Translations under genes and position numbers: made by a program | The notes under the pieces: model-generated | What the model was told of the DNA's origin: nothing | What the model saw: the letters and a program-made list of their open reading frames with translations, nothing else | Database searches by the model: none | From: Candidatus Pelethousia gallinarum | GTDB lineage: Bacteria; Bacillota; Clostridia; Christensenellales; CAG-138 | DNA: 48,497 bases | NCBI GenBank assembly: GCA_018711995.1 | Contig: DVHO01000030.1 | Coordinates: 1-48,497, forward strand | Direction: 5' to 3' | In this document: positions 1 to 29,479 of the stretch, piece after piece | How the letters are laid out: every line of letters starts with the position of its first letter | Position numbering within the stretch: the stretch's first letter is position 1

Positions 1-1
1 G

Positions 2-253
2 GTGATCCTGACGGCGGTGGAGAAGGTATCCATCAACTTCAAGAAGCCGGATCAAAAGGATCTGGATGTGATCAGCCCTGGGGAAGCCAAGGCATATATG
101 GCGGAAGGGCATTTTGCGCCAGGGTCCATGCTGCCCAAGATGGAGGCGGCGGTAAAATTCGTGGAGAGCAAGCCGGGGCGGACGGCCATCATCACGTCCC
201 TGGACAAGGCGGTGGAAGCCTTAGCAGGCCGGGCGGGCACCACCATCCGGTGA
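2..253 (+). CDS. arcC: Carbamate kinase, C-terminal fragment (gene begins left of the window)
   Basis: The frame is open to the window edge. The tail GSMLPKMEAAVKFVESKPGRTAIITSLDKAVEALAGRAGTTI resembles the conserved C-terminus of carbamate kinases (amino-acid-kinase fold). Stop TGA at 251-253. Confidence 0.7.
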   Translation: MILTAVEKVSINFKKPDQKDLDVISPGEAKAYMAEGHFAPGSMLPKMEAAVKFVESKPGRTAIITSLDKAVEALAGRAGTTIR

Positions 254-416
254 TCTGCGGGGGGCTACCCGCCCCCCTACAGTTTGCAAAGGCCGTTGCG
301 GGCGGCCGTCAAGGCGGCTCCCTTCAACGCCCTTGCCCATTGGGCTTGCCACATCAGGGGGGTGCGTCACGGGAGGGCGCGCGCCGGGGCCAGCCGGGGG
401 GGCGGCGGCGTTTGGC

Positions 417-491
417 GGCCCGGGCGCCCAAGGCGCCCGGGCCAGCCAAACCAAAGGCCGGGCCGGGGGGCCAAAGCCCCCCGGCCCGGCC
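417..491. repeat. Two perfect GC-only palindromic hairpins in a very GC-rich convergent intergenic spacer (254-594)
   Basis: Hairpin 1 is ggcccgggcgcc/caa/ggcgcccgggcc at 417-443 (12-bp stem). Hairpin 2 is ggccgggccgggggg/ccaaag/ccccccggcccggcc at 456-491 (15-bp stem). Neither has a U-tract. They lie between the convergent arcC and pucR-like genes. Confidence 0.5.
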
Positions 492-594
492 TTCCGGGCG
501 CGGAGCGCCCTGCCGCCGCCCCCCCGGCTGGCCCCGGCTCCCCTGCCGCAGAGGCTCCCAAGGGCGGCTGGCAGCGGTGGGACCCTTGCTCCCG

Positions 595-2223
595 TTAGCC
601 GGGGTTTCTGGATAGGTCCTCCTGGCCGGCGGCCTGGGGATGGAGCCGGTAGAGCTGGATGGCGGTCTCCAGGGCAAAGCGCTCCTGGGCCACCCGGGGA
701 TCCAGGCCGGTGAGCTCTTTGACCCGCTTGAGCCGGTAGACCAGGGTGTTGTAGTGGGTGAAGGTGAGCTCAGAGAGCTTCTTCAGATTGCCGCCGCATT
801 GGAAATAGGCTTCCAGCACCGGGATAAACTCCACGTTCCGGGTCTCCTTGGGGTCCAACAAGGGGCCGATGGTCTCCTGGATGTATGCCTGGATCTCCGC
901 GTCCGGGTCGTCGGCGTAGATCAGCCGGAACAGGCCGATCTGATGAAAGCCTAGGATACAGCTGGTTTCGTCCTGGGAGCTGGCGCATAGCCGCAGGGCG
1001 GTTTGCGCTTGCTTGGCGCTTTGCAGCAGGCCCTCGAAGCCAGGCCGCGGGTTGCCATAGCCTGCCTGGAACCGCAGGTCTGGGGCGTGGCGCTGTAGGC
1101 CCGCCATGATCCGCTCTAATAGCTGGGCCACCTCGCCTAGACGGTTTTTGCCTTTCGGCGCGTTTAAGAGCAGCAGATGTTCCGTCCCATCCTGGACATG
1201 GAGGCAGTTTACATCCAGGGCCCGGAACATATCTTCCACCTCTTCAAAGTGCAAGGCCCGTTCTGGAGGCCTGCTGTGGGCGTCGCCGATCTCGGAGATG
1301 CGAATGCGCACCACCATATGGACATGGTCTAAAACCAGCCAGGGACTGGGACTGCGATGGGCCTCCTTGGCAGGTTCCACCGGGGCGGTGCGAAGGAGCC
1401 GGGCAAAATAATCGTCCAGGGCTTTGGCGGAATCCCGGTTGTTACGGGTCTGGGCGATCTCCAGGGAAACGGAACGGGCGATCAGTTCCACGGTCTGCAA
1501 ATGGGCCTGGGTGATGGGGGAGTCCGTTGGGTAGACAAAGATCTGGCCATAGACCTCATCCCCCACATGGATGGGCCGGTGGGAGGGCTGGGGCAGGGAT
1601 TCCTTGCCCCGAAGGCTGGCAATGGATTGTCCCCGCTTGGTAAGGAAGCGGGCGTTGCGGCCGTTGATGGTGTCGCAGATCAGCACGGAATTCCCCACCA
1701 GCTGGGACAGCATCCGGGCAATGCCCACCAGGTCCGCCCCCCCCGCCAGCAGGGAGAGCACCACCTCGTCCAAGGCCTGGGCCTGGGCGAGATAGGCGGC
1801 CTGCTTCTCCAAGAGGGCGTCGGAAACCCCTTTGAGCACCCCGGCGAGGGTGATGCCCCGGGCCAGCTGGATCACCGGCAGGCGGAGCTGGTCGGCCTCC
1901 CGAAGAAAATCCGGGGAAAAATCCGGCAGGCTCACCGCAGGGCGCAGGCAAATGCCCGAAATGCCCAATTGACGAAGCCGGTGGATGAAATCAGAGGATA
2001 AGGCGGGCGGGGCCTCGATCCAGGTCCAGTCCACCAAAAACAACTCGCCGGGATGGGCCGGGGCGGCAATGTCCGGCGCGCCGGCCAGGGAGGCGCCGGT
2101 GACCAGATTGGATAGGCCTTGGCTGCCGGCAAGGAGCCTGGAATTTTGCAAAATGGGCAAATGCAGCAAATCCTGCAAAGATATGCCCAAAGGAAGGAGA
2201 TTGGGACGGGATTCTTGAAGCAA
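595..2223 (-). CDS. PucR-family transcriptional regulator (purine-catabolism-regulator-like)
   Basis: 542-aa ORF. It has a C-terminal PucR-type HTH (LKKLSELTFTHYNTLVYRLKRVKELTGLDP) and a PucR-like N-terminus (ISLQDLLHLPILQNSRLLAGSQGL). It is divergent from the operon starting at 2511. Confidence 0.8.
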   Translation of the reverse strand: MLQESRPNLLPLGISLQDLLHLPILQNSRLLAGSQGLSNLVTGASLAGAPDIAAPAHPGELFLVDWTWIEAPPALSSDFIHRLRQLGISGICLRPAVSLPDFSPDFLREADQLRLPVIQLARGITLAGVLKGVSDALLEKQAAYLAQAQALDEVVLSLLAGGADLVGIARMLSQLVGNSVLICDTINGRNARFLTKRGQSIASLRGKESLPQPSHRPIHVGDEVYGQIFVYPTDSPITQAHLQTVELIARSVSLEIAQTRNNRDSAKALDDYFARLLRTAPVEPAKEAHRSPSPWLVLDHVHMVVRIRISEIGDAHSRPPERALHFEEVEDMFRALDVNCLHVQDGTEHLLLLNAPKGKNRLGEVAQLLERIMAGLQRHAPDLRFQAGYGNPRPGFEGLLQSAKQAQTALRLCASSQDETSCILGFHQIGLFRLIYADDPDAEIQAYIQETIGPLLDPKETRNVEFIPVLEAYFQCGGNLKKLSELTFTHYNTLVYRLKRVKELTGLDPRVAQERFALETAIQLYRLHPQAAGQEDLSRNPG

Positions 2224-2510
2224 ATAGCAGGCCCTCCTTCAAATTGGTATCTTTCAACAAAAGAATACCATTAGATTTGTATAAAGTCAACATAGACAAC
2301 TGGCATAAGATGGCCGATAATAGTTACATAACAAAATTGTCTTGACAAAATATCAGCGCTGATCATCCAAACACAAACAACCGACCAACCAGAACCAATC
2401 CAGACCAGACAGGAACCAATTTTTTGTAGCGGCACACAAAGACTGTGTGGGTGTGCTAAATTTTCCTTTCTACATGTGCAACTCAATTATGCATCAAGGA
2501 GGCGAACGCA

Positions 2511-3170
2511 ATGGCAACGATCGACAAAATGGAACAACAACTCAGGCCGCCGACCATCGGACTAAAACCCTATGAACCCAAGGTAATTCCCCTGATCACC
2601 GGCGAAGATATGTTGGTGCGGGAAATCACCCGGGATGAGGTCCCGCTCATTTTGGAAACCATCGAGCCCCTTATGAAGCAGCCCAAGGACTTCTACGACA
2701 TCGTGGCGGCCCGTATCTATGCGGAGCTGCTGGGCATGTACCGCTATCGGGTACAGGATGAATATTTCTTCGTAGGCGCCATCGACGGCGAGATCGCCGG
2801 TATCGTCAACGGCCGCCTGGTCAATGAAAAGATCGGCATGAGCTATCACACCATGACCCTGCGCCGCGGTTTGCGGGTAGGCGCCCAGCTGTTTGCCGCT
2901 AAGATGGAATATCACTTCGACTTCATGAACCAGGACGAGGTCTGGATCGTGGCGGAGAGCCCCAACGGCTTCAAGCGTTGGATGATCGAGTACGAGCTGG
3001 AATCCCGGCCTGAGTGCCCCCACGAGCTGGGCGGCGTACCCACCTATGTGCTCACCCGGGCCCTGTGGGAGAAACATAAGGCCAACAAGAACGTGGGCAT
3101 CCGTCCTGCGTTTGAGGATGTTATCAAGGCAAACGAAGTGCTGCGCAAGCCCCCGAAGATCAGCGTCTAA
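2511..3170 (+). CDS. Hypothetical protein; possible acyltransferase (GNAT-like) fold, family not recognised
   Basis: 219-aa ORF with AAGGAGG at 2496-2502, 8 nt before the ATG. It is the first gene of the plus-strand operon. There is only a weak by-eye GNAT-like core (GAIDGEIAGIVNG...LRRGLRVGAQLF). Confidence 0.55.
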   Translation: MATIDKMEQQLRPPTIGLKPYEPKVIPLITGEDMLVREITRDEVPLILETIEPLMKQPKDFYDIVAARIYAELLGMYRYRVQDEYFFVGAIDGEIAGIVNGRLVNEKIGMSYHTMTLRRGLRVGAQLFAAKMEYHFDFMNQDEVWIVAESPNGFKRWMIEYELESRPECPHELGGVPTYVLTRALWEKHKANKNVGIRPAFEDVIKANEVLRKPPKISV

Positions 3171-3194
3171 GCGCTGGAGAAAGGAAGTGGAAAC

Positions 3195-4391
3195 ATGCGT
3201 CAGGTAGGAATCGTTGGCGTAGGGCATACCAAATTCGGCAAGCATAACGGCACCTTCTTGGAAATGATCAGCGAGGCCGCCCTGCAGGCCATGGACGATG
3301 CCGGCGCCAAAACCGGCGATAATAACGTCATCGACCAGGTATTTGTAGCCAGCATGGGCGCCGGCATGATCAACCGGATTAGCGGCTCCGCCTCTGCCCT
3401 GGTAGATACCCTGGATATCCGCCCCGCCATGGCGGAGTGCATTGAGAACGGCCCCGCCTCCGGCGCGTCCGGCATCAAGCTGGGCTATATGGCCATCGCT
3501 TCCGGCATGTGCGACTGCGTGCTGGTGGTAGGCGGCGAGCAGATGCGGGTGGTAAGCGGCTGGGAAGCCACGGACTTTGTGGCCACCATGCTCCATCCGG
3601 AAGCAGAATATAAATACGGCGCGACCTTGCCCTCCTTCGCGGGCATGTTCACCCGCCTGTGCATGGAGAAATACGGCGTTGAGAGCAGGGACCTGTCCAT
3701 CATCTCCGTAAAGAACCATGAAAACGCCATGCACAATCCCTGCGCCCATATCCACCGCAGGGCGGTGCTGGAGCGCATCACCAACCCGGCTTACATCAAC
3801 GCCACCAACCCCATCGTGGCGGACCCCCTGCGCCAGTTCGATATGTGCCCGGTGAGCGACGGCGCCGCCGCGGTGCTGCTGGTGGCCAAGGATAAGCAGG
3901 AAGAGCTGGGCTTTGGCGACAAGAAGTTCATCCGGATCGCCGGTATTTCCAGCGCGACCGATACCCACGTGGTGGCTAACCGCGCGGTACCCACGGACCT
4001 GTTGGCTGTGCGCACCGCTGCCCAAAAGGCCTACAAGATGGCGGGTATGGGCCCCGAGGATATCGACGTGGCGGAGCTGCATGACGCCTTCCTGATCCTG
4101 GAGATCGTGGAGAGCGAGGAAGTGGGCTTCTTCAAGCGGGGCGAAGGCCATATCGCCGCCCGCAACGGCGAAACCCGCATCGGCGGCAAAATGCCCATCA
4201 ACCCCTCCGGCGGCTTGAAGGCCAAGGGCCATCCCCTGGGCGCCACGGGCGTATCCCAGGTGGTGGAGCTGGTCCGGCAGCTGCGGGGCGAGGCGGACGG
4301 CCGCCAGGTGGAAGGCGCCAAGACGGGCCTGGCCGTCAACTTCGGCGGCTTTGGCAACAACGTGGTCGCCACCATTGTGACGACGGACTAA
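3195..4391 (+). CDS. Thiolase-fold protein (SCP2/archaeal-type thiolase-like), apparently lacking the canonical catalytic cysteines
   Basis: 398 aa. Thiolase-fold signatures are present: VLVVGGEQM and NPSGGLKAKGHPLGATGVSQVVELVRQLRGEA. The expected N-x-C-A-(S/T)-G nucleophile segment reads ENGPASGASG. The SCP2-thiolase HDCF motif reads HDAF. Confidence 0.8.
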   Translation: MRQVGIVGVGHTKFGKHNGTFLEMISEAALQAMDDAGAKTGDNNVIDQVFVASMGAGMINRISGSASALVDTLDIRPAMAECIENGPASGASGIKLGYMAIASGMCDCVLVVGGEQMRVVSGWEATDFVATMLHPEAEYKYGATLPSFAGMFTRLCMEKYGVESRDLSIISVKNHENAMHNPCAHIHRRAVLERITNPAYINATNPIVADPLRQFDMCPVSDGAAAVLLVAKDKQEELGFGDKKFIRIAGISSATDTHVVANRAVPTDLLAVRTAAQKAYKMAGMGPEDIDVAELHDAFLILEIVESEEVGFFKRGEGHIAARNGETRIGGKMPINPSGGLKAKGHPLGATGVSQVVELVRQLRGEADGRQVEGAKTGLAVNFGGFGNNVVATIVTTD

Positions 4392-4403
4392 GGAGGCAAG
4401 GAT

Positions 4404-4745
4404 ATGGAACAACTCTACGCATATAAATGCAATAAGTGCGGCAAGCTGCACCATCCCCATTACATTGTCTGCCAGAATCCGGCGTGCGAAAGCAGGGAGT
4501 TTACCCCCGAAGTGCTGGAGGGCAAGTGCAAGCTCCTTACCTGGACCCGGGTTTACAACCTGCCCGAAGGCTATATGAAGCCCTGGCTGAATTTCGGCAT
4601 CGTGCAGTTTGAAAACGGCGTGACCGCCATGGGTCAGATCGGCTTTGACGATATCGAAAACGGCATGGAGCTGGTCTCCACCGTGGATGTGGTCAAAGAG
4701 GGCGTGGGCCAGGATCAATACGGTTTCGTGTTCGTCAAACCATAA
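4404..4745 (+). CDS. DUF35-type zinc-ribbon/OB-fold protein (thiolase partner subunit)
   Basis: 113 aa. It has an N-terminal four-Cys ribbon (CNKCGKLHHPHYIVCQNPAC) followed by an OB-fold-like C-terminus. It sits 12 nt after the thiolase-like gene, the arrangement typical of thiolase/DUF35 pairs. Confidence 0.75.
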   Translation: MEQLYAYKCNKCGKLHHPHYIVCQNPACESREFTPEVLEGKCKLLTWTRVYNLPEGYMKPWLNFGIVQFENGVTAMGQIGFDDIENGMELVSTVDVVKEGVGQDQYGFVFVKP

Positions 4746-4872
4746 GGCGTGGAAGGGATACCCGCCTGGCAGGCGCCGGGCGGGGATTCTGCAAGGGCGG
4801 GGCTGAAAACCGCCCCCGCAGTCCAAAGCGGGCGGCCCGATCCGGCCGCCCCACCATACTGGAGGGATTTGT

Positions 4873-6432
4873 TTGATAAAACTTGAAGTTCGGAAAAATG
4901 CGTATTACGATTCCGTGACCCTGATGCTCATCTCCAAGGACGTTAAGAAGCTGGAAGGCATCGAAGAAGCCCTGGTGGGCATGGGAACGGAATTGAATCG
5001 GGAAATCGCGGCCAATCTGGGCCTGGACGCCCCGGGGTTCGAGGCGGTGGGGCCCAATGACTTTTTTGTGGCCGTCCGCTGCGGGGACGAGGCGGCGTTT
5101 ACCAACGCCATAGAAACCGTGGATACCCTCATCAATAAAAAGGCGGACAGCGAGGCCGCGGCCTACACCCCCCCCACCCTGGAGGGTGCGCTGAAGATGG
5201 ACCCCAATCTGAACATGGCGGTCATCTCCGTGCCGGGCAAGTTCGCGGCAGGGGTCGCCCAGGAGTGCCTGGATAAGAACATCCACGTGATGCTCTTTAG
5301 CGACAACGTGACCGTGGACGAAGAACGGGAACTGAAAACCTTTGCGGCGGAACGTGGTTTGCTGGTCATGGGCCCGGATTGCGGCACGGCCATCATCAAC
5401 CACGTGCCTTTGGCGTTTGCCAACGTGGTAAAGCCGGGGGGCATCGGCATCGTAGCGGCTTCCGGCACGGGCACCCAGGAGGTATCCTCCCTGGTGGACC
5501 AGCTGGGGGGCGGCGTATCCCAGGTGATCGGCACCGGCGGCCGGGACCTGAAGAAAGAGATCGGCGGCATCATGATGACCATGGGCCTGGAGTCCCTCAT
5601 CGACGACGAGGCCACCAAGGTGATCGTGTTGATCTCCAAGCCCCCGGCCAAGGAGATCGCCACCCAGATCCTTACGCTGGCCACCAAGACGGATAAGCCC
5701 GTGGTGGTGTGCTTCATCGGCGGCGACCCGGCGGAGATCCGTTCCTTTGGCCTACATGCGGCCCTGTCCCTGGAGGATGCGGCCTATAAGGCGGTGGCCC
5801 TATTGAAGGGCGAGGAGGTCAAGGACTTCGTCAGCTTCACCATGGGCCAGGCGGAGGCCGAGGCCCTGGCTAAGGAGGAGGCCGGCAAAATGGCCCCCAG
5901 CCAGCGGTATGTGCGGGGCCTGTTCACCGGCGGCACCCTTTGCGACGAGGCCATGAAGCTCCTGAAGGAAGGCCTGGGCCATATTTATTCCAACATCCCC
6001 TTGGACCCCGCGGATCTCATCGAGGAGGCCCGTACCGCCAAGAGCCGGGAGAACACCTTCCTGGATTTCGGCGACGATGCCTTTACCGTGGGCCGGCCCC
6101 ATCCCATGATCGACCCCTCCCTGCGGGCTGAGCGGGTGATCACCGAAGGGGACGATCCCGAGACGGCCGTCATCTTTACGGATTGCGTCATCGGCTATGG
6201 CTCCCATCCGGACCCGGCTGAAGACCTGTCCGAGGCCATCCGCAAGGCAAAGGCCAACGCCCAGCAGGCGGGACGGCACATTACGGCGGTGGTCTCCGTG
6301 TGCGGCACGGAAGGCGATCCCCAGGGGCTCACAGCCACCCGGGAAAAGCTGCGGGCAGCCGGCGCGCTGGTATTCCCCTCCAATGCCCAGGCAACCCGTT
6401 TCGTGCAGCTGCTGCTGGGGAATCTTGCGTAG
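4873..6432 (+). CDS. fdrA: FdrA-family protein (succinyl-CoA-synthetase-alpha-like, acyl-CoA synthetase FdrA)
   Basis: 519 aa with a TTG start and GGAGGG at 4861-4866. The N-terminus MIKLEVRKNAYYDSVTLMLISKDV matches the FdrA N-terminal pattern. It also has SCS-alpha-like MGPDCGTAII and IVAASGTGTQEV. Confidence 0.8.
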   Translation: MIKLEVRKNAYYDSVTLMLISKDVKKLEGIEEALVGMGTELNREIAANLGLDAPGFEAVGPNDFFVAVRCGDEAAFTNAIETVDTLINKKADSEAAAYTPPTLEGALKMDPNLNMAVISVPGKFAAGVAQECLDKNIHVMLFSDNVTVDEERELKTFAAERGLLVMGPDCGTAIINHVPLAFANVVKPGGIGIVAASGTGTQEVSSLVDQLGGGVSQVIGTGGRDLKKEIGGIMMTMGLESLIDDEATKVIVLISKPPAKEIATQILTLATKTDKPVVVCFIGGDPAEIRSFGLHAALSLEDAAYKAVALLKGEEVKDFVSFTMGQAEAEALAKEEAGKMAPSQRYVRGLFTGGTLCDEAMKLLKEGLGHIYSNIPLDPADLIEEARTAKSRENTFLDFGDDAFTVGRPHPMIDPSLRAERVITEGDDPETAVIFTDCVIGYGSHPDPAEDLSEAIRKAKANAQQAGRHITAVVSVCGTEGDPQGLTATREKLRAAGALVFPSNAQATRFVQLLLGNLA

Positions 6433-6441
6433 GAGGGAATT

Positions 6442-7869
6442 ATGGCGAAATTGAACGAATTATACCAAAAAGAGCTCCATGTCGTAAACTTTGGCGTGGA
6501 AGCCTTCTATCAGGACCTCCTATCCCAGAACAAAAAGGCGGTACATGTCAACTGGAAGCCCGCCGCGGGAGGCGATCCCCGGCTGGCGGCCATGCTCCGC
6601 AAGCTCCACAGCGGGGAGCTGGGTGAAAAGATCGCCGCGGCCAACGCCGAGGCCCTCACCCGGATCCTCAACGCCCAGCCTACCCTGATCGGCCTGGGCA
6701 CCGCAGGCGAGCTGCTGCCCGGCATGACCAAGAAAACCATCCTCCATGCGGGCCCGCCCATTACCTGGGACAGGATGAGCGGCCCGGTGCGGGGCGCCGT
6801 CATGGGCGGCCTGATCTACGAGGGATTGGCCAAGGACCTGAAAGAAGCGGAAGAGTTGGCGGCCTCCGGGGAGATCACCTTCGACCCCTGCCACCATCAT
6901 AACGCGGTAGGCCCCATGGCGGGCGTGGTGACCTATTCCATGCCTGTATGGCGGATGAAGAACAAGGCCTTTGGCAACGAAGCCTATTGTACCTTTAACG
7001 AGGGCTTGGGCAAGGTGCTGCGCTTCGGCGCCTGCGACCAGGAGGTCATCGACCGGCTGAACTGGCTGGCTTCCGGCCTGTATCCGGTGCTGCGGGCAGC
7101 CATGGAGCGGATCGGGGAGATCGACATCAAGACCATGATCGCCCAGATCCTCCAGATGGGCGACGAGGGCCACAACCGGAATAAGGCGGGCACCTCCCTG
7201 CTGTTCCGGGAGCTGACCTTGGGCGTGCTGGAGACGGACTTCTCCAACCAGGAGAAGGAGGCGGCCCTGCGCTTCCTCAACAACAACGACCACACCTTCC
7301 TGAACATCTCCATGCCGGCCTGTAAGTGCACCATGGACGCCATCCAGGGGATCCCCTATTCCACGGTGGTGTCCACCATGTGCCGCAACGGCACGGACTT
7401 CGGCATCCGGATCGCGGGCCTTGGGGAAAAGCAGTGGTTCACTGCCCCGGCAGAGGCGGTGGACGGCCTTTACTTCCCGGGCTACACCGAAGCGGACGCC
7501 AACCCGGACCTGGGAGACAGCTGCATCACAGAGACCACCGGCATCGGCGGCTTCTGCATGGCGGCGGCCCCGGCCATCGTCCAGTTTGTGGGCGGCAAGG
7601 TCCAGGACGCCATCAACTATTCCCTGGAGATGTACGAGATCACCACCGGCGAAGGCTCCGCATACCGGATCCCCGCCCTGGACTTCCGGGGCAGCGCCAC
7701 GGGCATCGACCTGCTGAAGGTGATCGAGACCGGCATCCGGCCCATTATCAATACGGGCATCGCCCACAAGGACTATGGCGTGGGCCAGATCGGCGCCGGC
7801 TTGGTGCGGCCCCCGGCCGCCTGCTTCACCCAGGCCCTGGAGGCCTGCGCAAAGGCCTGGCTGGAATAG
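6442..7869 (+). CDS. DUF1116 protein (YlbE / AllG-like)
   Basis: 475 aa, 9 nt after fdrA. VNFGVEAFYQDLLSQNKKAVHVNWKPAAGGDPRLAAML resembles the YlbE-family N-terminus. It has the same fdrA-ylbE adjacency as in E. coli. Confidence 0.75.
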   Translation: MAKLNELYQKELHVVNFGVEAFYQDLLSQNKKAVHVNWKPAAGGDPRLAAMLRKLHSGELGEKIAAANAEALTRILNAQPTLIGLGTAGELLPGMTKKTILHAGPPITWDRMSGPVRGAVMGGLIYEGLAKDLKEAEELAASGEITFDPCHHHNAVGPMAGVVTYSMPVWRMKNKAFGNEAYCTFNEGLGKVLRFGACDQEVIDRLNWLASGLYPVLRAAMERIGEIDIKTMIAQILQMGDEGHNRNKAGTSLLFRELTLGVLETDFSNQEKEAALRFLNNNDHTFLNISMPACKCTMDAIQGIPYSTVVSTMCRNGTDFGIRIAGLGEKQWFTAPAEAVDGLYFPGYTEADANPDLGDSCITETTGIGGFCMAAAPAIVQFVGGKVQDAINYSLEMYEITTGEGSAYRIPALDFRGSATGIDLLKVIETGIRPIINTGIAHKDYGVGQIGAGLVRPPAACFTQALEACAKAWLE

Positions 7870-8000
7870 CCGCGCTTTGAAGGGATTCCTTTTCTCCCGC
7901 CCAGCCCTGGGGGCTGGGTGGGGTTTCGGGCGGTTCGCCCCGTTATCATCCTTGCCGCAGGTTCGCCGCGGCTACTAACTACCGTAAGGAGGTTTCGCAA

Positions 8001-8801: not shown

Positions 8802-8807
8802 TTTTAT

Positions 8808-8838
8808 GGGACGGCGTTTGCCGTCCCTCGTTATTTCT
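8808..8838 (+). terminator. Rho-independent terminator after the cyclase gene (copy 1 of a duplicated ~45-bp module)
   Basis: Hairpin gggacggc/gttt/gccgtccc (8808-8827) followed by tcgttatttct. Confidence 0.6.
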
Positions 8839-8933
8839 CAATAAATATCACGACTTACCAACTTACGACGAGGTGGCAGGTGCGCAATATGAGATCCAAG
8901 CGTTTTTATCAGCATACGATCCCATATCCCTAA

Positions 8934-8967
8934 GGGACGGCGCACTGCCGCCCCTCGTTATTTTTTT
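8934..8967 (+). terminator. Second terminator-like hairpin (copy 2 of the same module)
   Basis: gggacggc/gcact/gccgcccc (7 of 8 pairs) followed by tcgttattttttt. The flanks share ...ctcgttattt...atcacg with copy 1. Confidence 0.5.
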
Positions 8968-9300
8968 ACAAGAATCACGGGCTGTAGTGCCCGGGGGAAC
9001 GAGAGAGGTAGAGCAGGTGGAAGCATTATCCTACGTCATTATCCTGGCCATTATCGCAGCGTTGCTGCTCATCTATGAAAAGGGATTGCGGCCGATAAAA
9101 AAGCCTGCGACGGGTTTGCCCTGGCCTATCTCGCCCTGTATCAGGAGACGGTAGGCGGTACTGTCCCATCGGGAATACGATATATCCAGGCTGGGGAGGA
9201 AGACGGGATCCGCTTGTTGCCTATGGAAGAGCAGGACGCGGCGGTGGCCCAGGCGCTGGAACGGGCGGCCGGGCAAAAAGCCCAAGCCCATCTAGACTAG

Positions 9301-9651
9301 ATGCGGCAGGCATTGGAACGGTGTTTTGACGCCATCGGCAGCAGCGAACGATATCGGAATATGTATTTCCAGCCGTTAAATGAAATTTACGCCTTGCCCC
9401 ATTATTTTATCTTGGCGGGGCGAGAACCAGAACAAATTGTGAAGCATGCGGAGCTGGCGGACGCGGAAGGGTTTATGCATAAACATCAGCAGGTTTGCCA
9501 GCAGTTGGCCCGGCGGCTGAGCCGGGAGGGGTTAACGAAGTTTCAAGCGGCGTGCCGGCAGGGCCAGCCTGCGGCAGCCGACAGGACCCAGGACCGGGCG
9601 GGGCGCGGCGGCGCCGCCCCAGCCACAAATCAGGAGGAGGAGGACGTATGA
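9301..9651 (+). CDS. Hypothetical small protein (uncertain)
   Basis: 116-aa ORF. Its TGA overlaps the ATG of the downstream FAD-subunit gene (ATGA at 9648-9651), which suggests translational coupling. No recognisable family, and the C-terminus is low-complexity. Confidence 0.3.
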   Translation: MRQALERCFDAIGSSERYRNMYFQPLNEIYALPHYFILAGREPEQIVKHAELADAEGFMHKHQQVCQQLARRLSREGLTKFQAACRQGQPAAADRTQDRAGRGGAAPATNQEEEDV

Positions 9652-10481
9652 GAGCATTTGAGTATTTTGCGCCTGGGACCGTAGGGGAGGCGGCAAAATT
9701 CCTTCGTGAAAACGAGGGGAAGGCCGTGGTCCTCAACGGCGGTACGGATGTGGTGATCCAGCTGCGGGACCGGCTGATCAACCCGGCATACGTGGTGGAC
9801 ATCAAACGCATCCCAGGATTGAACGAACTGCGGTTTTCCAAGGAAGAGGGCCTGCATATCGGCGCTTGCGTGAACATGAACCGCTTGGGCGGGGATGAGA
9901 ACGTACGCACATATTACCCCTTCCTGGCGGAAGCCGCCCTATCGGTGGGCTCCAAGCAGGTGCGCAACCGGGCGACCTGCGCCGGCAACCTGATCAACGC
10001 TTCCCCCTTGGCGGACACCTCTACGCCCCTGCTGTGCCTGGACGCGGTGTTGGAAGTGGAAGGCCCGGACGGCAAGCGGGAGATCCCCATCAATGAGTTT
10101 TTCGTATTCGTCCGCAAGACCACCTTGCAAAAGGATGAGATCGTCACCGGGATCCGGGTCCCCTATTATGAGGGCGTCCAGGGTATTTTCACCAAGGTAT
10201 CCCGGCGCAATAAGGTGGACCTATCCACCGTGTGCAGCACGGTGATGAAGCATGAAGGCAAATACCGGGCGGCCTTTGGCTCTGTGGCGCCGACCCCCCG
10301 GCGGCTGCCCCAAACGGAAGCCTGCCTGAACGAAGGGCCGTTGGATGAAGCGCGGATCGACCGGGCGGTGGAGCTGGCCCTCAGCGAGGTATCCCCCATC
10401 GACGACGTGCGGGCAAGCAAGCAGTACAGGCTGGACGTGGTGGCCATGGCCCTGCGCCGGAGCCTGGAAAGCCTGGGCTAA
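9648..10481 (+). CDS. Molybdenum hydroxylase (xanthine dehydrogenase family), FAD-binding medium subunit (CoxM/XdhB-like)
   Basis: The start was chosen at ATG 9648, with AGGAGGAGG immediately upstream; the track ORF starts at 9495. MRAFEYFAPGTVGEAAKFL...VLNGGTDVVIQLR is the typical FAD-binding PCMH-type N-terminus. Confidence 0.85.
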   Translation: MRAFEYFAPGTVGEAAKFLRENEGKAVVLNGGTDVVIQLRDRLINPAYVVDIKRIPGLNELRFSKEEGLHIGACVNMNRLGGDENVRTYYPFLAEAALSVGSKQVRNRATCAGNLINASPLADTSTPLLCLDAVLEVEGPDGKREIPINEFFVFVRKTTLQKDEIVTGIRVPYYEGVQGIFTKVSRRNKVDLSTVCSTVMKHEGKYRAAFGSVAPTPRRLPQTEACLNEGPLDEARIDRAVELALSEVSPIDDVRASKQYRLDVVAMALRRSLESLG

Positions 10482-10494
10482 GGAGGGACGCGAG

Positions 10495-10980
10495 ATGAAA
10501 TATCATGTTCATTTTTACGTAAATGGCGATGCCTATGATTTGGATGTGCCCGCCAACAAAACCATGCTGGATGTGTTGCGGGACGAATTGTGCCTTACCG
10601 GTACCAAGGAGGGCTGCGGCGCCGGTGAGTGCGGCGCGTGCACGGTGATCGTGGACGATGTGCCCCTCAACGCTTGCCTGGTGCTGGCGCCGGAGCTGGA
10701 CGGGGTGCATATCACCACGGTGGAAGGCCTGTCCGACGGGCCGAAGCTCTCGCCGCTGCAGCAGAGCTTCATCAAGCATGGCGCCCTGCAGTGCGGGTTC
10801 TGCACGCCTGGCTTCCTCATGTCCGCCACGGCGCTGCTCAATGAAAATCCCCATCCCACCCGGGAGGAGATCATCGATAGCATCAGCGGGAACCTGTGCC
10901 GTTGTACGGGCTATAAGCGGATCGTAGAAGCCATTGAGGAGATCGCAGCCCGCGGCCAGGCGGCCGATACACAGGAATAG
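10495..10980 (+). CDS. Molybdenum hydroxylase, [2Fe-2S] small subunit (CoxS/XdhC-type iron-sulfur subunit)
   Basis: Start at ATG 10495 with AGGAGGG upstream. Both cluster motifs are present: CGAGECGACTV, and CGFCTPG...CRCTGY. Confidence 0.9.
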   Translation: MKYHVHFYVNGDAYDLDVPANKTMLDVLRDELCLTGTKEGCGAGECGACTVIVDDVPLNACLVLAPELDGVHITTVEGLSDGPKLSPLQQSFIKHGALQCGFCTPGFLMSATALLNENPHPTREEIIDSISGNLCRCTGYKRIVEAIEEIAARGQAADTQE

Positions 10981-10996
10981 AAAGGAGGCGCCCCGT

Positions 10997-13309
10997 ATGA
11001 AATATGTAGGCCAAAGCATAGAGCGTGTGGACGCGATCCGCAAGGTAACCGGGCAGGCGCAGTATGTGGGCGACTTCCATATGCCCCGCATGCTATACGC
11101 CCAGGTGAAGCGGAGCCCGTACCCCCATGCGAAGATCATCAGCATCGACGTATCCAAAGCCGAGAAGCTTCCCGGCGTGCGGGCCGTGATCACCGGCGAA
11201 TGGTATACCAAGCGTTGCGGCCTGTACCTGGAGGATAAAAACTTCCTGGCCAACAAAACGGTGAAGTATCAGGGCGAAGCCGTGGCGGCAGTTGCCGCAG
11301 AAACCGCCGAAATCGCCCAGGAAGCCTGCGATTTGATCGAGGTGGTCTATGAGGAGCTGCCGGCGGTTACCAACGCCATAGACGGCATGAAGCCGGATGC
11401 GCCCTTGATCCATCCCGACCTGCATACCTACAAAGTCGCACCGATTTTCTTCCCAAAACCCCACACAAATATCTCCCATCACTACAAATTGCGCAAAGGA
11501 GATGTTGACAAAGCCTTCAAAGAGTGCGATTATGTAGCAGAGCACACATATTACATTCCCCATGTACAACACGTCCCCTTGGAACCCCATGTAGCCATTG
11601 CGCAATATGAATACGACGGCAAGCTGACCGTTTGGGCCAGCACCCAGTCCCCCTACGCGGTGCGGCAAGCCCTGAGCGTAGCCTTTGAGATCCCCCTGAA
11701 TAAGCTGCGGGTTATTTCCCCGTACGTGGGCGGCGGCTTCGGCTCAAAAGCAGGCACCACCATCGAGGGCATCATCATCCCCCTGGCCATGCGCTGCAAG
11801 GGCCGGCCGGTGAAGCTCCAGTACAGCCGGGAGGACGAATTCCAGAATTCCTACGTACGCCAGGGCCTCCATTGCAAGATCAAGACCGGCGTCAAGAAGG
11901 ACGGCCGCATCCACGCGGTGAAGAACGAATTCGTCTGGGATGGCGGCGCCTATACAGAATACGGCGTCAACATCGTAAAGGCAGGCGGCTTCGCCTCCGC
12001 AGGCCCCTACAACATCGACAACGTGTGGACGGATAGCTACTGCGTCTACACCAACCACCCCGTGGGCGGCCCGTACCGGGGCTTCGGCATGTGCGAGATC
12101 CATTTCGCCATCGAGCAGAACATCGACATCGTGGCCAAGGAGATCGGCATGGATCCGGTGGAGATGCGCCGGATCAACGGCCTGCGGGTAGGGGATAAGA
12201 CCTGCATGGGCGAGACCATGGTGGTATCCGGGTACCATGAGTGCCTGGAGGAAGTGGTCAAGGATATCGGCTACGGGGAGAAGAGCGAGAGCCCCAACCC
12301 CCGGAAGGTACGGGGCAAGGGCATCGCGGCCGGCTGGAAATCCCCTTCCATGCCCACCAACGCAGGTTCCGCGGCCATCATCCGGATGAACGAGGACGGT
12401 ACCTTCTTCCTGATGACCAGCGGCCAGGAGATCGGCCAAGGTTCGGATACGGCCCTGACCCAGATCGCCGCCGAGACCCTGGATGTGGACCCCAAGCTGA
12501 TCACCATCCGCACCGGCGACACGGACCATACCCCCTATGAATGGCAGACCGTGGCCAGCCGTACCACCTATTGCGCAGGCAACGCGGTGAAGCTGGCCTG
12601 CGAGGACCTGAAGAAGAAGATCCTGGAGCTGGCCCAGATCAAGCTGGGGGCCTATAAGCGGGATCTGGAATTCAAGGACGGGTATGTGGTGCATAAGATC
12701 TACACCGACCGGAAGGTCCCCCTGTCGGAATTCGCATTGGGCCTGGCGTTCCCGGACGGCTCCGGCGTAGGCGGCCCCGCCATTGGCGTAGGTACCTTCA
12801 CCCTGGAGAACAACATCAACTACGACAAGGAAACCGGCATCGGCGAACATCCTGTGGCATTCTGGACCATCGGCGTGAACGGCGCGGAGGTAGAGGTGGA
12901 TCTGGACACCGGCGAGGTGAAGGTGCTTCGGATGGTATCCTGCTTCGACGCAGGTAAGGTCATCAACCCGGAAACCTTCTGCGCCCAGTCCGAAGGCGCC
13001 ATGGTGCAGGCCATGGGCACGGCCCTGTTCGAGGAACTGATCCTCAAGAACGGCCACATCCTCAATAAGAACTTCGTAGACTATAAGATCCCCACGGCGG
13101 ACGATATGCCAGAATTGACCGTTAAATACATAGAGCATGCGGAGCCCACCGGCCCCTATGGAGCCCGCGGCGTGGGCGAGCCGCTTATGGTACCCGGCGC
13201 ACCGGCTATTGCAAACGCCATTTACGACGCCATCGGCGTGCGATTCAACCGTATGCCAATTACAGCTGAGGAGGTGTTGAAGGCTCTAAAAGAAAAGGCG
13301 ACTGAATAA
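10997..13309 (+). CDS. Molybdenum hydroxylase, molybdopterin-binding large subunit
   Basis: Start at ATG 10997 with AAAGGAGG upstream, giving ~770 aa. The N-terminus VGQSIERVDAIRKVTGQAQYVGD and internal GGGFGSK are typical of aldehyde oxidase/xanthine dehydrogenase a/b hammerhead plus MoCo domains. Confidence 0.9.
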   Translation: MKYVGQSIERVDAIRKVTGQAQYVGDFHMPRMLYAQVKRSPYPHAKIISIDVSKAEKLPGVRAVITGEWYTKRCGLYLEDKNFLANKTVKYQGEAVAAVAAETAEIAQEACDLIEVVYEELPAVTNAIDGMKPDAPLIHPDLHTYKVAPIFFPKPHTNISHHYKLRKGDVDKAFKECDYVAEHTYYIPHVQHVPLEPHVAIAQYEYDGKLTVWASTQSPYAVRQALSVAFEIPLNKLRVISPYVGGGFGSKAGTTIEGIIIPLAMRCKGRPVKLQYSREDEFQNSYVRQGLHCKIKTGVKKDGRIHAVKNEFVWDGGAYTEYGVNIVKAGGFASAGPYNIDNVWTDSYCVYTNHPVGGPYRGFGMCEIHFAIEQNIDIVAKEIGMDPVEMRRINGLRVGDKTCMGETMVVSGYHECLEEVVKDIGYGEKSESPNPRKVRGKGIAAGWKSPSMPTNAGSAAIIRMNEDGTFFLMTSGQEIGQGSDTALTQIAAETLDVDPKLITIRTGDTDHTPYEWQTVASRTTYCAGNAVKLACEDLKKKILELAQIKLGAYKRDLEFKDGYVVHKIYTDRKVPLSEFALGLAFPDGSGVGGPAIGVGTFTLENNINYDKETGIGEHPVAFWTIGVNGAEVEVDLDTGEVKVLRMVSCFDAGKVINPETFCAQSEGAMVQAMGTALFEELILKNGHILNKNFVDYKIPTADDMPELTVKYIEHAEPTGPYGARGVGEPLMVPGAPAIANAIYDAIGVRFNRMPITAEEVLKALKEKATE

Positions 13310-13504
13310 CGCCGTATCCGCGGCCGCAATGGCCCAAGGATTTAAAGCAGTCACCGAAGCACTTAGGGAAGCATACTTACAAATTGGAAGTAGGCGCTAC
13401 TTTTGAGCAAGGAAAAGATCGATTACAGCCAAGGCATTTATGATGCACCAGGACAATTAGGTTGGGGTAGAACGATTGTTTTGGGCATCTAGCACGTATT
13501 CGCC

Positions 13505-14695
13505 ATGTTTGGCGCAACGGTGCTGGTCCCCATCCTTACAGGCTTGAGTATCTCCGTGACGCTGCTGTGCGCAGGCGTGGGCACATTGCTCTTCCACTTC
13601 CTGGCAAAGGGGAAAGTACCTGCATTCCTGGGATCTTCCTTCGCATTCCTTGGCGGATTTGCGGTGGTAGCCCCCATGGTGGACGGTATGCCCAACAAGG
13701 AAATGCTGCCCTATGCATGCGGCGGTATCGTGATTGCCGGTTTGCTGTACGTGGTGGTAGCGGCGCTGATCAAGGTGCTTGGTATCAAACGGGTCATGCG
13801 CTTGTTCCCGCCGGTGGTTACCGGTCCTATCATCATCCTGATCGACTTGATCCTGGCGCCCAGCGCCATCACCAACTGCCAGGCCAACTGGCTGCTGGCG
13901 GTCATCACCATGCTGCTGATCATCGGCTGCAACATCTGGGGCAAGGGCATGATCAAGATCATCCCCATCCTGATCGGTATCGTAGGCGCCTACATCATCG
14001 CCTTGATCGTCGGCTGGGTAGACTATAGCGGCCTGGCAACTGCAGCCGCCGTAGGCATCCCGCCCTTCACCATTGCCAAATTCAGCGGCAGCGCGATCCT
14101 CACCATGGCGCCCATCGCCTTGGCTACCATGATGGAGCACGTGGGCGATATCTCCGCCATCAGCGCGACCTGCGGCAGGAACTTCATCGCCAACCCCGGC
14201 CTGCATCGCACCCTGTTGGGCGACGGCTTGGCCACCTCCCTGGCTGGCTTGGTGGGCGGCCCCGCCAACACCACCTACGGCGAGAACACCGGCGTGCTGG
14301 CACTCTCCAAGGTATACGATCCCAAGGTCATCCAGATCGCGGCGGTCGTGGCCGTCATCCTCAGCTTCAGCCCCTGGTTTGACGCCCTGGTGAACACCAT
14401 CCCCACCGCCATCATCGGCGGCGCATCCTTCGTGCTCTACGGCATGATCTCCGCCATCGGCGTACGGAACGTGGTAGAAAATCAGGTAGACCTGACCAAG
14501 TCCCGTAACCTGATCATCGCGGCGGTCATCCTGGTATCCGGCTTGGGCTTCAACTCCGTAGGCGGCATCCAGATCGGCATCGTGAACCTGTCCGGCTTGG
14601 CCACCGCTGCCATCCTGGGCATCTTGCTCAATGCCATTCTGCCCGGCAAGGACTATGAGTTCCAGATGGAAGAGCCTGAGGACGCAAAGGCTTAA
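13505..14695 (+). CDS. NCS2-family nucleobase permease (uracil/xanthine permease-like); N-terminus interrupted by an in-frame TAG at 13490-13492 (possible pseudogene)
   Basis: MFGATVLVPILTG and GENTGVLALSKVYDP are NCS2 (UraA/PyrP-like) signatures. The same frame upstream reads TTG(13403)-SKEKIDYSQGIYDAPGQLGWGRTIVLGI-TAG-HVFA-MFGATV. The stop therefore sits where the family has the conserved Gln of LQH(L/V)FAMFGATV. Confidence 0.8.
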   Translation: MFGATVLVPILTGLSISVTLLCAGVGTLLFHFLAKGKVPAFLGSSFAFLGGFAVVAPMVDGMPNKEMLPYACGGIVIAGLLYVVVAALIKVLGIKRVMRLFPPVVTGPIIILIDLILAPSAITNCQANWLLAVITMLLIIGCNIWGKGMIKIIPILIGIVGAYIIALIVGWVDYSGLATAAAVGIPPFTIAKFSGSAILTMAPIALATMMEHVGDISAISATCGRNFIANPGLHRTLLGDGLATSLAGLVGGPANTTYGENTGVLALSKVYDPKVIQIAAVVAVILSFSPWFDALVNTIPTAIIGGASFVLYGMISAIGVRNVVENQVDLTKSRNLIIAAVILVSGLGFNSVGGIQIGIVNLSGLATAAILGILLNAILPGKDYEFQMEEPEDAKA

Positions 14696-14701
14696 TCTGT
14701 A

Positions 14702-14782
14702 GGAATCTTGCCGGACCCCTCCGGCAAGATTCCCCACAAGTAAAAAGGGGATGCGCCGCGCCGGTTTGGGGCGGCGCATCTT
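14702..14782 (+). terminator. Two consecutive stem-loops after the permease gene
   Basis: ggaatcttgccgg/acccct/ccggcaagattcc (14702-14733) and gatgcgccgc...gcggcgcatc (14750-14780) followed by tt. The U-tracts are weak. Confidence 0.45.
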
Positions 14783-14842
14783 AGTTCAAACTATAGGGGT
14801 AAGGGGCGCAGAATAGCGCCTGGGGGAGAGGAGGATAGGCAT

Positions 14843-15769
14843 ATGCCTAGTATCTGCATAGCAGGAACAGCCGCAGCCGCCATGCTGCAACAGGGACCCA
14901 TGGAAGGACGGGTACATAGCGTGTTCCGCCGGGTGCTGAATGTGGAAATGCCGGCATTGGCAGGGGCGGTGGATAACCTATATAGTTTGGGAAGGCAGGA
15001 TGTGCCGCCATCGCCTGCCATGCTGGTGACAGACCTACGGCGGGCATTTTTCGGGGTATCACCTGGGGATGTGATCCGGATCCATTCGGATTTAATCGAA
15101 GTGGGGGAATACCGCATCGCCATTCCGGAAGCGTTACCCCAGTGGGGACAGAGCCCCCATGTATGCGGCGACCTGGCGGATCGGGAAACCCTAGAAGGCT
15201 ATTTTTCCAATATTGCCGCCGTGCTGCTGCAACGGGTGCCATGGCCGCAACCCAGCGCATTGCTGCTTTTGGCAGGCCGGCAACCCCGGCGGGACGATCC
15301 CTATGGCAAGGCCTTCCAGGCCGGGGTAGAGGGATTGGAGGCATGGGGCGATAGAGCCTTGGAGGCTGCCTTGCCTGCGGCCCCGGTGCAGGAAACGGCA
15401 CGGCTGTTGGGCTTGGGCGCAGGACTGACCCCCTCGGGCGACGATTATATTTCCGGGGTACTGATCGGCCTTGGGCAATTTCCCAAAGCGGCAGGTTTGC
15501 TGGCCAGCTTGATCCAGGCGGTGCAGGCCAATCTGGCCCGTACCAACCGCTTGAGCCAGCACTTTTTATCCTATGCCATGGCCGGCTATTGGGGCCGCCT
15601 GGAAGATCAGCTGGTCGCCGCATTGTGCGCGGCAGACCGGCCGGGTTATCTGGCTGCGGCGGAAGCTTTAGCCGCATACGGTTCCTCCTCCGGAATAGAT
15701 GAAATGCTGGGCCTGCGCACCGGCCTGCGCCTGGGATTGATGGCTTCCAATGGGGAGAGGCTTTGCTAA
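14843..15769 (+). CDS. DUF2877 protein (YlbF / AllH-like)
   Basis: 308 aa with GAGGAGG upstream. It carries the family-typical GLGAGLTPSGDDYISGVLIGL motif. Confidence 0.7.
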   Translation: MPSICIAGTAAAAMLQQGPMEGRVHSVFRRVLNVEMPALAGAVDNLYSLGRQDVPPSPAMLVTDLRRAFFGVSPGDVIRIHSDLIEVGEYRIAIPEALPQWGQSPHVCGDLADRETLEGYFSNIAAVLLQRVPWPQPSALLLLAGRQPRRDDPYGKAFQAGVEGLEAWGDRALEAALPAAPVQETARLLGLGAGLTPSGDDYISGVLIGLGQFPKAAGLLASLIQAVQANLARTNRLSQHFLSYAMAGYWGRLEDQLVAALCAADRPGYLAAAEALAAYGSSSGIDEMLGLRTGLRLGLMASNGERLC

Positions 15770-18818: not shown

Positions 18819-18896
18819 CCCTTTTACCGTACCCGCCCCAGGGCCGGCACAGGCCCTGGGATAAAACCTGTGAATAAAAATTTGGAGGTATTGATC

Positions 18897-19274: not shown

Positions 19275-19275
19275 T

Positions 19276-29478: not shown

Positions 29479-29479
29479 G

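Follow-up and report, generated by a model that had tools for sequence, protein, structure and literature searches.

The window considered here is a stretch of 48,497 nt from Candidatus Pelethousia gallinarum (contig DVHO01000030.1, assembly GCA_018711995.1). Its subject is the catabolic gene island at positions 1-15769, which encodes, among other proteins, a three-subunit molybdenum (Mo) hydroxylase, a cyclase-family metal hydrolase and a set of transcarbamylase components, and which is discussed as a candidate system for anaerobic pyrimidine degradation. Families were assigned from a listing of open reading frames (ORFs) and by Pfam and NCBIfam profile searches; the start positions of the Mo-hydroxylase genes were revised in the light of the sequence itself and of the genes called in this species. 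Every family named in an initial annotation of this DNA was recovered by Pfam or NCBIfam, each in its expected place. The descriptions attached to them had to be amended on four points: the status and type of the transcarbamylase, the fold of a 219-amino acid (aa) protein, the cysteine of a thiolase-fold protein, and the integrity of the NCS2 permease gene.

At the left edge lie the C-terminal 83 codons of a carbamate kinase gene (2-253, forward strand; AA_kinase match), which runs on to the left of the window. This fragment is parted from the operon by the divergently transcribed gene of a PucR-family regulator (595-2223, reverse strand) with PucR, GGDEF_2 and HTH_30 domains. The genes that follow are all on the forward strand. 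They encode the 219-aa protein (2511-3170), a thiolase-fold protein of the archaeal DUF35-associated type (3195-4391), a DUF35/zf-ChsH2 zinc-ribbon protein (4404-4745), AllF/FdrA of the YahF type (4873-6432), AllG/DUF1116 of the YahG type (6442-7869) and the cyclase-family hydrolase (8001-8801). Then come the flavin adenine dinucleotide (FAD), 2Fe-2S and molybdopterin subunits of the Mo-hydroxylase (9649-10481, 10495-10980 and 10997-13309), an NCS2 permease (approximately 13404-14695) and AllH/DUF2877 (14843-15769). An 850-bp gap between the cyclase and the Mo-enzyme genes contains a strong terminator-like hairpin with a T-run (8808-8838, in an element at 8805-8852, with a degenerate second copy at 8931-8979) and a degenerate gene for a small membrane protein (9018-9500), recognised by weak tblastn similarity (E 1e-4) that crosses a frameshift and a stop codon. 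An intact version of this gene, coding for a predicted membrane protein of ~182 aa that belongs to no Pfam family, is found directly 3' of the cyclase in 12 related loci. All enzyme genes of the window are intact, and many contigs encode identical or nearly identical products.

In Escherichia coli, purified AllF-AllG-AllH constitutes an oxamic transcarbamylase, which interconverts oxalurate plus phosphate (Pi) and oxamate plus carbamoyl phosphate (Kim & Kim 2024, PMC11326118), and the downstream gene ybcF (allK) encodes a catabolic carbamate kinase (PMC11326118, PMC9843812). The activity has been demonstrated for the E. coli enzyme with oxalurate/oxamate only (PMC11326118). Pfam now labels DUF1116 as AllG and DUF2877 as AllH. 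Thus, the oxamate carbamoyltransferase function that the initial annotation had reported as merely proposed for the FdrA/DUF1116/DUF2877 set is proven for E. coli AllFGH (PMC11326118), but the window copy is of a different type, that of YahEFG. All three components are present in the window. AllF carries PF02629 and PF00549 (CoA_binding and Ligase_CoA) and passes the FdrA model NF004760 with 487 bits against a cut-off of 433, while AllG matches PF06545 at 1.4e-96 and AllH matches PF11392 at 1.3e-18. AllF is 44.5% identical to YahF and 37.5% to E. coli AllF; AllG is 51.7% identical to YahG, whose long architecture it shares, and 47.5% to E. coli AllG; AllH, at 29% to E. coli AllH and 26% to YahE, does not discriminate. 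By these sequence comparisons, the window trio is closer to the uncharacterised YahEFG paralogues than to AllFGH. The kinase fragment behaves alike, with 49% identity to YahI and 37% to AllK of E. coli.

The first ~56 residues of the window AllG (6442-6610) correspond in many lineages to a separate ORF of 55-62 aa between AllF and AllG, for example L001:8477-8647. The same segment also matches the C-terminal tail of E. coli AllF, and it is thus mobile between subunits.

The initial annotation had left room for classical allantoin genes just left of the window. None lies in the flank known from the same species (locus L094), which instead contains the full carbamate kinase gene (312 aa, with one residue differing over the window fragment), a permease of the NCS1 cytosine/uracil family, a LacI regulator and a PreA-like protein of the dihydropyrimidine-dehydrogenase family. 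In another assembly of the species (L093), a ROK protein and a glycyl-radical enzyme with its activase are encoded there, and no kinase. AllC, AllD, AllE and GlxK gave no tblastn match at E 1e-5 or better in the window and ~95 related loci. Given the Yah-type trio and no all genes nearby, a different acyl-urea substrate is to be expected. The linked kinase and the Yah-type trio fit the phosphorolysis of an acyl-urea other than oxalurate, as far as can be judged from homology.

The cyclase-family hydrolase is assigned by PF04199 (117 bits, 9e-34). Its metal-binding motif HxGTHxDxPxH is intact (HVGTHLDGPLH), with H52, H56, D58 and H62 invariant among orthologues. It scores far below the arylformamidase equivalog TIGR03035 (47.9 bits against a cut-off of 223), and its PDB relatives are remote (E 1e-11 or weaker). 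The PF04199 family includes dihydrophloroglucinol cyclohydrolase, an enzyme of anaerobic phloroglucinol degradation by which a six-membered 1,3-dicarbonyl ring is opened (PMC10470551). The likeness is one of family, and extends to a metal-dependent, hydrolytic ring opening in fermenting Clostridia. The known enzyme cleaves a C-C bond of a carbocycle, whereas the window cyclase is proposed, by this analogy, to open the barbiturate ring at a C-N bond of a diaza ring.

The Mo-hydroxylase has the three-subunit FAD/2Fe-2S/molybdopterin architecture of XdhABC and PucCDE. Its FAD subunit (277 aa; FAD_binding_5, CO_deh_flav_C) starts at an ATG with a ribosome-binding site; the 2Fe-2S subunit (161 aa) has Fer2 and Fer2_2 domains, and the molybdopterin subunit (770 aa) has Ald_Xan_dh_C and MoCoBD domains. 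The molybdopterin subunit falls below the XdhA/PucD equivalog cut-offs (594.6 bits against 780, 567.7 against 916 and 448 against 784). Its identity to XdhA and XdhD of E. coli is ~32%, as against 42-64% to cluster-linked orthologues in other phyla. Three motifs were located: GGGFGSKA, YRGFG and GVGEP. We take the first, from the motifs rather than from an alignment, to place Ala at the position of the xanthine-binding Glu802 of the bovine enzyme; Ala occupies this position in 97% of 35 orthologues. On the same presumed mapping, the Arg of YRGFG and the Glu of GVGEP are the equivalents of Arg880 and of the catalytic Glu1261, and both are kept. The closest solved relative in the PDB is the dehydroxylating 4-hydroxybenzoyl-CoA reductase, where CoA stands for coenzyme A. 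Sub-cut-off scores, the PDB match, the Ala motif and the 32% identity together lead us to reject an ordinary xanthine dehydrogenase, which, combined with allantoin genes in the left flank, would have spoken against the initial annotation. The enzyme is proposed to be a uracil-type C6 hydroxylase. In one locus of the same species (L099:156-2467), the gene of the large subunit is split into pieces of 63 and 707 aa by a frameshift or an assembly error.

The NCS2 permease matches PF00860 (281 bits) and, among NCBIfam models, scores highest with UraA (313 bits) and RutG (283 bits), ahead of PbuX (184 bits). Its nucleobase-ascorbate transporter (NAT) signature is ENTGVLALSK, which is the E-N-x-G form, and most linked permeases have the same form. 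At the start of this motif, E is typical of transporters for uracil and Q of those for xanthine and urate. The linked permease and its motif thus support a pyrimidine rather than a purine as the imported base, to the extent that a signature can. The Ala motif of the Mo subunit, and the NCS1 permease and PreA-like genes to the left in L094, point the same way. The permease of the window is broken, contrary to what the initial annotation had implied when it correctly named the family. An in-frame TAG at 13490-13492 takes the place of a conserved Gln and recurs in four of five independent assemblies of the species, and the fifth (L096) has a 2-bp insertion, and thus a frameshift, at the same site. 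Further lesions are found downstream in L096 and in L098, where the frame is split again, while the flanking enzyme genes are intact. The permease is likely a decaying pseudogene in this species.

Scanning one genome per species gave at least 591 species-representative genomes with a close orthologue of the cyclase, and the exact cyclase sequence of the window occurs on at least 1000 contigs. Orthologues 66-91% identical are found in Bacillota, Synergistota, Chloroflexota, Thermotogota and others. The neighbourhood of the cyclase was counted by tblastn with defined queries in 49 retrieved loci of at least 18 kb from species-representative genomes, a gene being scored as present when within 10 kb of the cyclase. 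AllF and AllG are each present in 49 of 49, and in most loci they are directly upstream of the cyclase. The NCS2 permease is near in 36 and the Mo-hydroxylase in at least 28. AllH was detected in 30, this protein being too divergent for reliable detection by tblastn. For a carbamate kinase, 11 of 80 loci have one at a distance of up to 10 kb.

Co-conservation of the gene set extends over Bacillota, Synergistota and Chloroflexota. In Clostridium sp. MT-14 (L100), the whole window set forms one tight co-directional operon in the order PucR, AllH, AllF, AllG, cyclase, GNAT, thiolase-like, DUF35, three Mo-enzyme subunits, NCS2 and carbamate kinase, so that the kinase is inside the operon. The set is also clustered in L001 and L003, and the PucR gene adjoins the core in L001, L003, L090 and L100. 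Alkaliphilus metalliredigens and a Synergistota genome have the same core with a different accessory gene. The constant presence of AllF and AllG, the spread over several phyla and the complete single operon in L100 bear out the view of the initial annotation that the genes belong together, and are not neighbours by chance. Directly after the carbamate kinase gene of L100 stands a 3-hydroxyacyl-CoA dehydrogenase gene (L100:18410-19339), which hints at a 3-oxoacyl-CoA product. This Hbd-like dehydrogenase was set aside as a pathway member, since it was not found in the other loci and does not generalise.

Another arrangement is encountered in Lacrimispora indolis and three Clostridium/Lachnospiraceae genomes (L021:3677-19072), where the core occurs without the Mo enzyme or a malonate module. 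The order there is nitroreductase, PucR, AllH, AllF, AllG, cyclase, two amidohydrolases, a DUF6198 protein, a short-chain fatty acid transporter, carbamate kinase, an NCS2 permease of the Q-N type and a protein of the orotidine monophosphate (OMP) decarboxylase family. In loci of this type, the cyclase/transcarbamylase core is probably supplied with another substrate.

What becomes of the carbon skeleton is suggested by the accessory genes of other lineages. In a Lachnospiraceae locus (L088), a co-directional string comprises MdcA, an MmdA-like carboxyltransferase, OadG, BCCP, OadB, an amidase, AllF, AllG, the cyclase, the three Mo-enzyme subunits and NCS2; the malonate decarboxylase string is found in L088 and in three species-representative Lachnospiraceae loci. 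MdcA, the alpha subunit of malonate decarboxylase, passes its equivalog threshold (799 bits against 789). OadB of L088 is the Na+-pumping subunit, the MmdA-like protein is closest to methylmalonyl-CoA decarboxylase, and the amidase is of the amidase-signature type. This amidase was considered as a malonamidase E2, for which there is no specific support, since the relationship is distant (68 bits) and a peptide amidase is the best match. In L090, from a lineage of Oscillospiraceae that is abundant, genes for a CoA-transferase of family III and an MmdA-like protein precede PucR, AllH, AllF, AllG and the cyclase, and Anaerotruncus likewise has both genes beside the same five. In Alkaliphilus, Tissierellia and Anaerolineae, a CoA-transferase gene follows the cyclase, often with a CN-hydrolase or amidase; a CN-hydrolase or amidase-signature amidase was noted in 18 loci.

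A ureide that yields carbamoyl phosphate, an amide that needs an amidase, and malonate together point to ureidomalonate. Ureidomalonate is ring-opened barbiturate, or N-carbamoylmalonamate, and barbiturate is 6-hydroxyuracil. The ureidomalonate (malonyl-urea) model of the initial annotation is therefore supported by malonate genes standing in one string with the core, the substrate itself being assigned by genomic inference. The window island carries no MdcA, MmdA/OadB, amidase or CoA-transferase gene of its own, and a malonate product is suggested for it by gene linkage in its relatives.

In place of these modules, the window has the 219-aa, thiolase-fold and DUF35 proteins. The gene of the 219-aa protein always travels with the other two. 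This trio was found in 21, the CoA-transferase in 16 and MdcA in 4 of the 49 long loci, with an overlap of 0. Such exclusion fits the suggestion of the initial annotation that the carbon skeleton is dealt with by the trio in the form of a CoA ester. The 219-aa protein has no sequence-profile match in Pfam, NCBIfam or PDB. Its AlphaFold2 model (pLDDT 88.4) was compared with the PDB by Foldseek, and the top 50 matches are all GNAT proteins (E 3e-7 to 1e-5, TM ~0.45-0.57), so that the predicted structure is that of the GNAT fold, the acyl-CoA N-acyltransferase superfamily. Malonyl-CoA decarboxylase is not among these top 50 matches, and a specific decarboxylase role for the protein is thus unsupported.

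The thiolase-fold protein has the thiolase N- and C-terminal domains (PF00108, PF22691), a DUF35 partner, and 7YVY (E 4e-77) and 6ESQ as its best PDB matches. The initial description of it as a thiolase-fold protein stands in these respects, except that the acyl-carrying Cys is absent. Its motif IENGPASG aligns to IEAACASG of 7YVY, which puts Pro87 at the position of the nucleophilic Cys. In 33 orthologues the Pro is without exception present at this position; His346 is retained, and the neighbouring Cys82 is not conserved. Since Pro87 replaces the nucleophile, the protein cannot be a canonical thiolase. Ketosynthase domains without Cys act as decarboxylases. The DUF35 protein matches PF12172 and has four Cys, at 9, 12, 23 and 28. 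Complexes in which a thiolase-fold protein is scaffolded by DUF35 presumably include the archaeal thiolase/HMG-CoA (3-hydroxy-3-methylglutaryl-CoA) synthase/DUF35 complex (6ESQ/6ET9), the Ltp2-ChsH2 aldolase and PhlABC. The window protein is nearest to the archaeal DUF35-associated thiolases and, as in those complexes, has a zinc-ribbon partner and a third protein alongside. It differs from them in the exchange of Cys for an invariant Pro, and in a third partner that has the GNAT fold and is not an HMG-CoA synthase. The GNAT-fold protein is proposed to bind CoA and to act on malonamate or malonyl-CoA.

Taken together, these observations make it on balance probable that the island specifies an anaerobic, oxidative route for a uracil-type pyrimidine, which would proceed via barbiturate and yield ATP by substrate-level phosphorylation, all its steps being read from genomics. 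The Mo-hydroxylase would hydroxylate uracil at C6 to barbiturate, and thymine may be handled alike. The metal-dependent cyclase-family hydrolase would then open barbiturate to ureidomalonate, an acyl-urea like oxalurate. The YahEFG-type AllF/AllG/AllH would convert ureidomalonate and Pi to malonamate and carbamoyl phosphate, from which carbamate kinase and ADP would give ATP, CO2 and NH3. The further fate of malonamate would depend on the lineage, several alternative modules being available. Outside the window lineage, an amidase would release malonate, MdcA or the family III CoA-transferase would form malonyl-CoA, and the biotin-dependent Na+-pumping decarboxylase would give acetyl-CoA. In the window lineage, the GNAT, Cys-less thiolase-fold and DUF35 proteins would take the place of the amidase, CoA-transferase and decarboxylase modules. 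It is tempting to speculate that DUF35 holds the trio together as a scaffold, as in the archaeal thiolase/HMG-CoA synthase complex, that the GNAT protein swaps the amide for a CoA thioester (malonamate and CoA to malonyl-CoA and NH3), and that the Cys-less thiolase-fold subunit decarboxylates malonyl-CoA, thereby pulling the unfavourable first step. PucR would regulate the genes. Uptake may fall to the NCS1 permease beside the kinase, the linked NCS2 permease being broken.

Several points weigh against this route. Firstly, in the genes themselves, the set of the window is split by a terminator, its own permease is a pseudogene, and strains of the species differ in whether the kinase adjoins PucR. 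Secondly, related loci do not all carry the expected enzymes. In ~40% of the long loci there is no Mo enzyme up to 10 kb away, and the core may thus serve other feeders or several substrates. The Lachnospiraceae variant (L088:1-17229) has AllF, the small ORF and AllG, and no recognisable AllH within 10 kb; a 350-aa family-less protein encoded after its permease was considered as a divergent AllH and rejected, as it has no similarity to AllH. The best named match of the linked CoA-transferase is CoA:oxalate CoA-transferase, at 360 bits against a cut-off of 522. Thirdly, there is the chemistry. Because the closest solved relative of the Mo subunit is a dehydroxylating enzyme, the direction of its reaction is not certain. 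By our own rough estimate, the net reaction of the GNAT/thiolase-like/DUF35 trio is near equilibrium under standard conditions and is feasible only with removal of its products. Barbiturate as an intermediate in anaerobes was not reported in the searchable literature. Lastly, genomics is the source of every enzyme role given here, and the chemistry of the trio is speculative.

Other explanations share part of this evidence. The same chemistry might be directed at another heterocycle, such as thymine, 4-hydroxypyrimidine, a 5-substituted uracil or barbiturate-like compounds imported directly. The frequent lack of a Mo enzyme near the core, with amidohydrolases, a nitroreductase or an OMP-decarboxylase-like protein present instead, would be accommodated by such a range of substrates, and thymine in particular would suit an MmdA-like carboxyltransferase closest to methylmalonyl-CoA decarboxylase. 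However, the MdcA equivalog points to malonate itself, and the permease motif in most loci is of the uracil type; this explanation is regarded as rather unlikely. A purine pathway is improbable. Here, the Mo enzyme would be a xanthine/hypoxanthine dehydrogenase, PucR would be the usual purine regulator, and the remaining genes would degrade a purine-derived ureide. A PucR-family regulator is indeed present, and XdhA is the best NCBIfam name for the Mo subunit, but the score of 595 bits is well short of the XdhA cut-off of 780, the identity to E. coli XdhA is 32%, and Ala stands at the Glu802 position. The permease is of the E-N (uracil) and not the Q-N type, and malonate is not a purine product. 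As the initial annotation had noted for the window, the YgeW/YgeX/YgeY/SsnA/HyuA families are absent, both among the island proteins scanned and among the genes annotated in related loci.

The trio might also be a true oxamic transcarbamylase. Oxalurate would then be derived from parabanate or an allantoin-like source, and oxamate would be turned into oxalate and activated by the CoA-transferase. The oxalate-type best match of that transferase would agree with this, as would the fact that AllFGH is characterised with oxalurate and oxamate only (PMC11326118). The window trio is nearer to YahEFG, though, no AllC/AllD/AllE/GlxK homologue is found in any locus searched, and the linked decarboxylases are of the biotin and MdcA types, which serve malonyl or methylmalonyl and not oxalyl units. 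An allantoin/oxalurate reading was rejected for the lack of all genes in the loci searched and for the Yah-type trio, and the oxamic explanation as a whole is given very little probability. Chance adjacency, or an island in decay that is no longer functional in this organism, would explain the pseudogene permease, the degenerate small gene, the split by a terminator, the one split Mo gene and the one strain without a kinase beside PucR. Set against these signs are the conservation of the set across phyla, its single operon in L100 and the intact enzyme genes of the window, and this last explanation is considered highly improbable.

The pyrimidine route via barbiturate resembles several known systems in part. 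Compared with E. coli AllFGH and AllK, it would use the same three protein families, a linked catabolic kinase, and the phosphorolysis of an acyl-urea to carbamoyl phosphate and on to ATP. It differs in the low identities given above and in the lack of allB/C/D/E neighbours. The domain split is also different, the window AllG having an N-terminal extension like that of YahG. Furthermore, the window-type core is linked to malonate and not to oxamate handling, which points to ureidomalonate. The closest E. coli homologues are encoded by yahE-yahF-yahG-yahI(-yahJ), where YahG has the same long architecture and the order DUF2877, FdrA-like, DUF1116 matches that in L085, L001 and L100. This cluster is without a cyclase-family hydrolase, a Mo-hydroxylase or a malonate module.

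In Rhodococcus and Mycobacterium, an aerobic route employs uracil/thymine dehydrogenase, barbiturase and ureidomalonase. With this aerobic oxidative pathway (summarised in PMC3758960 and PMC4051656), the island would share the proposed intermediates uracil, barbiturate and ureidomalonate and the carbon product malonate. In contrast to it, ring opening would be performed by a cyclase fold, and not by the barbiturase/cyanuric-acid-hydrolase fold; carbamoyl phosphate, which yields ATP, and not urea, would carry off the ureido group; malonate would be processed by a Na+-pumping decarboxylase, a CoA-transferase or the GNAT/thiolase-like modules; and the host is a strict anaerobe. No island protein matched a barbiturase of the cyanuric-acid-hydrolase family or a urea-releasing ureidomalonase in the Pfam and NCBIfam scans. 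The reductive uric acid pathway, which uses XdhD, YgfK, SsnA, HyuA, YgeW, YqeA, YgeY and YgeX (PMC12507026; bioRxiv 10.1101/2025.05.19.654654), is likewise an anaerobic nucleobase route, and brings together an enzyme of the xanthine dehydrogenase family, hydrolases that open the ring, a carbamate kinase and a carbamoyltransferase. Its carbamoyltransferase, YgeW, has the fold of aspartate and ornithine transcarbamylases (ATCase/OTCase), reduction comes first, and diaminopropionate is converted to pyruvate. Only the xanthine-dehydrogenase-family enzyme and the carbamate kinase are families common to that pathway and the island proteins scanned.

The proposed route thus combines barbiturate chemistry with that of AllFGH and its kinase, and adds non-homologous enzymes for hydroxylation and ring opening and an unexplained trio. 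An assignment of the cluster was not found in the full-text literature searched, subscription-only papers being outside the search, and no function was found there for yahEFG, which remain uncharacterised genes. A 2025 paper from a group active in the field names four routes for pyrimidines (PYD, aerobic oxidative, Rut and URC) and no others. It is possible, if doubtful, that the island represents an undescribed, fourth-type pyrimidine pathway of strict anaerobes in its entirety, abundant gut Clostridia included, with a new Mo uracil dehydrogenase (the first to be assigned genes), a new cyclase-fold barbiturase, a YahEFG step leading to ATP and, in the window lineage, a trio that forms a new complex on a DUF35 scaffold, captures the amide as a thioester and converts malonamate directly to acetyl-CoA without an amidase or CoA-transferase.

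If the proposed route were confirmed, it would stand as a new one beside the reductive, Rut, URC and aerobic oxidative ones. Fermenters would earn ATP from the ureido group by it, and in some lineages the malonyl part would be a source of acetyl-CoA or of a sodium gradient as well. Two activities that are orphan or poorly assigned, uracil/thymine dehydrogenase and a non-homologous barbiturase, would acquire genes. The AllFGH transcarbamylase family would acquire a second class of substrate, E. coli yahEFGI would have a lead as to their role, and the very conserved GNAT/thiolase-like/DUF35 trio would have a testable function. Such a route could matter for pyrimidine turnover in gut and sediment communities, and might bear on what happens to uracil analogues and barbiturate-type drugs.

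To the right of the island, glycine-cleavage genes occupy 16170-23471. These were rejected as members of the pathway, since outside this species no related locus has them beside the core. At 16170-18818, a single frame, which has 882 aa when read from its likely start, fuses GCV_T, the glycine-cleavage T protein, to a serine hydroxymethyltransferase domain. Four independent assemblies have the same gene call for this unusual fusion, and GcvH, GcvPA, GcvPB and Lpd come next. Beyond them, the window contains unrelated housekeeping and signalling genes. Among the latter, a region on the reverse strand (24952-34702), unrelated to the island, encodes two Ser/Thr protein kinases (one of 1156 aa), a trypsin-like protease with an FHA domain, two PP2C phosphatases and a DUF805-FHA protein.

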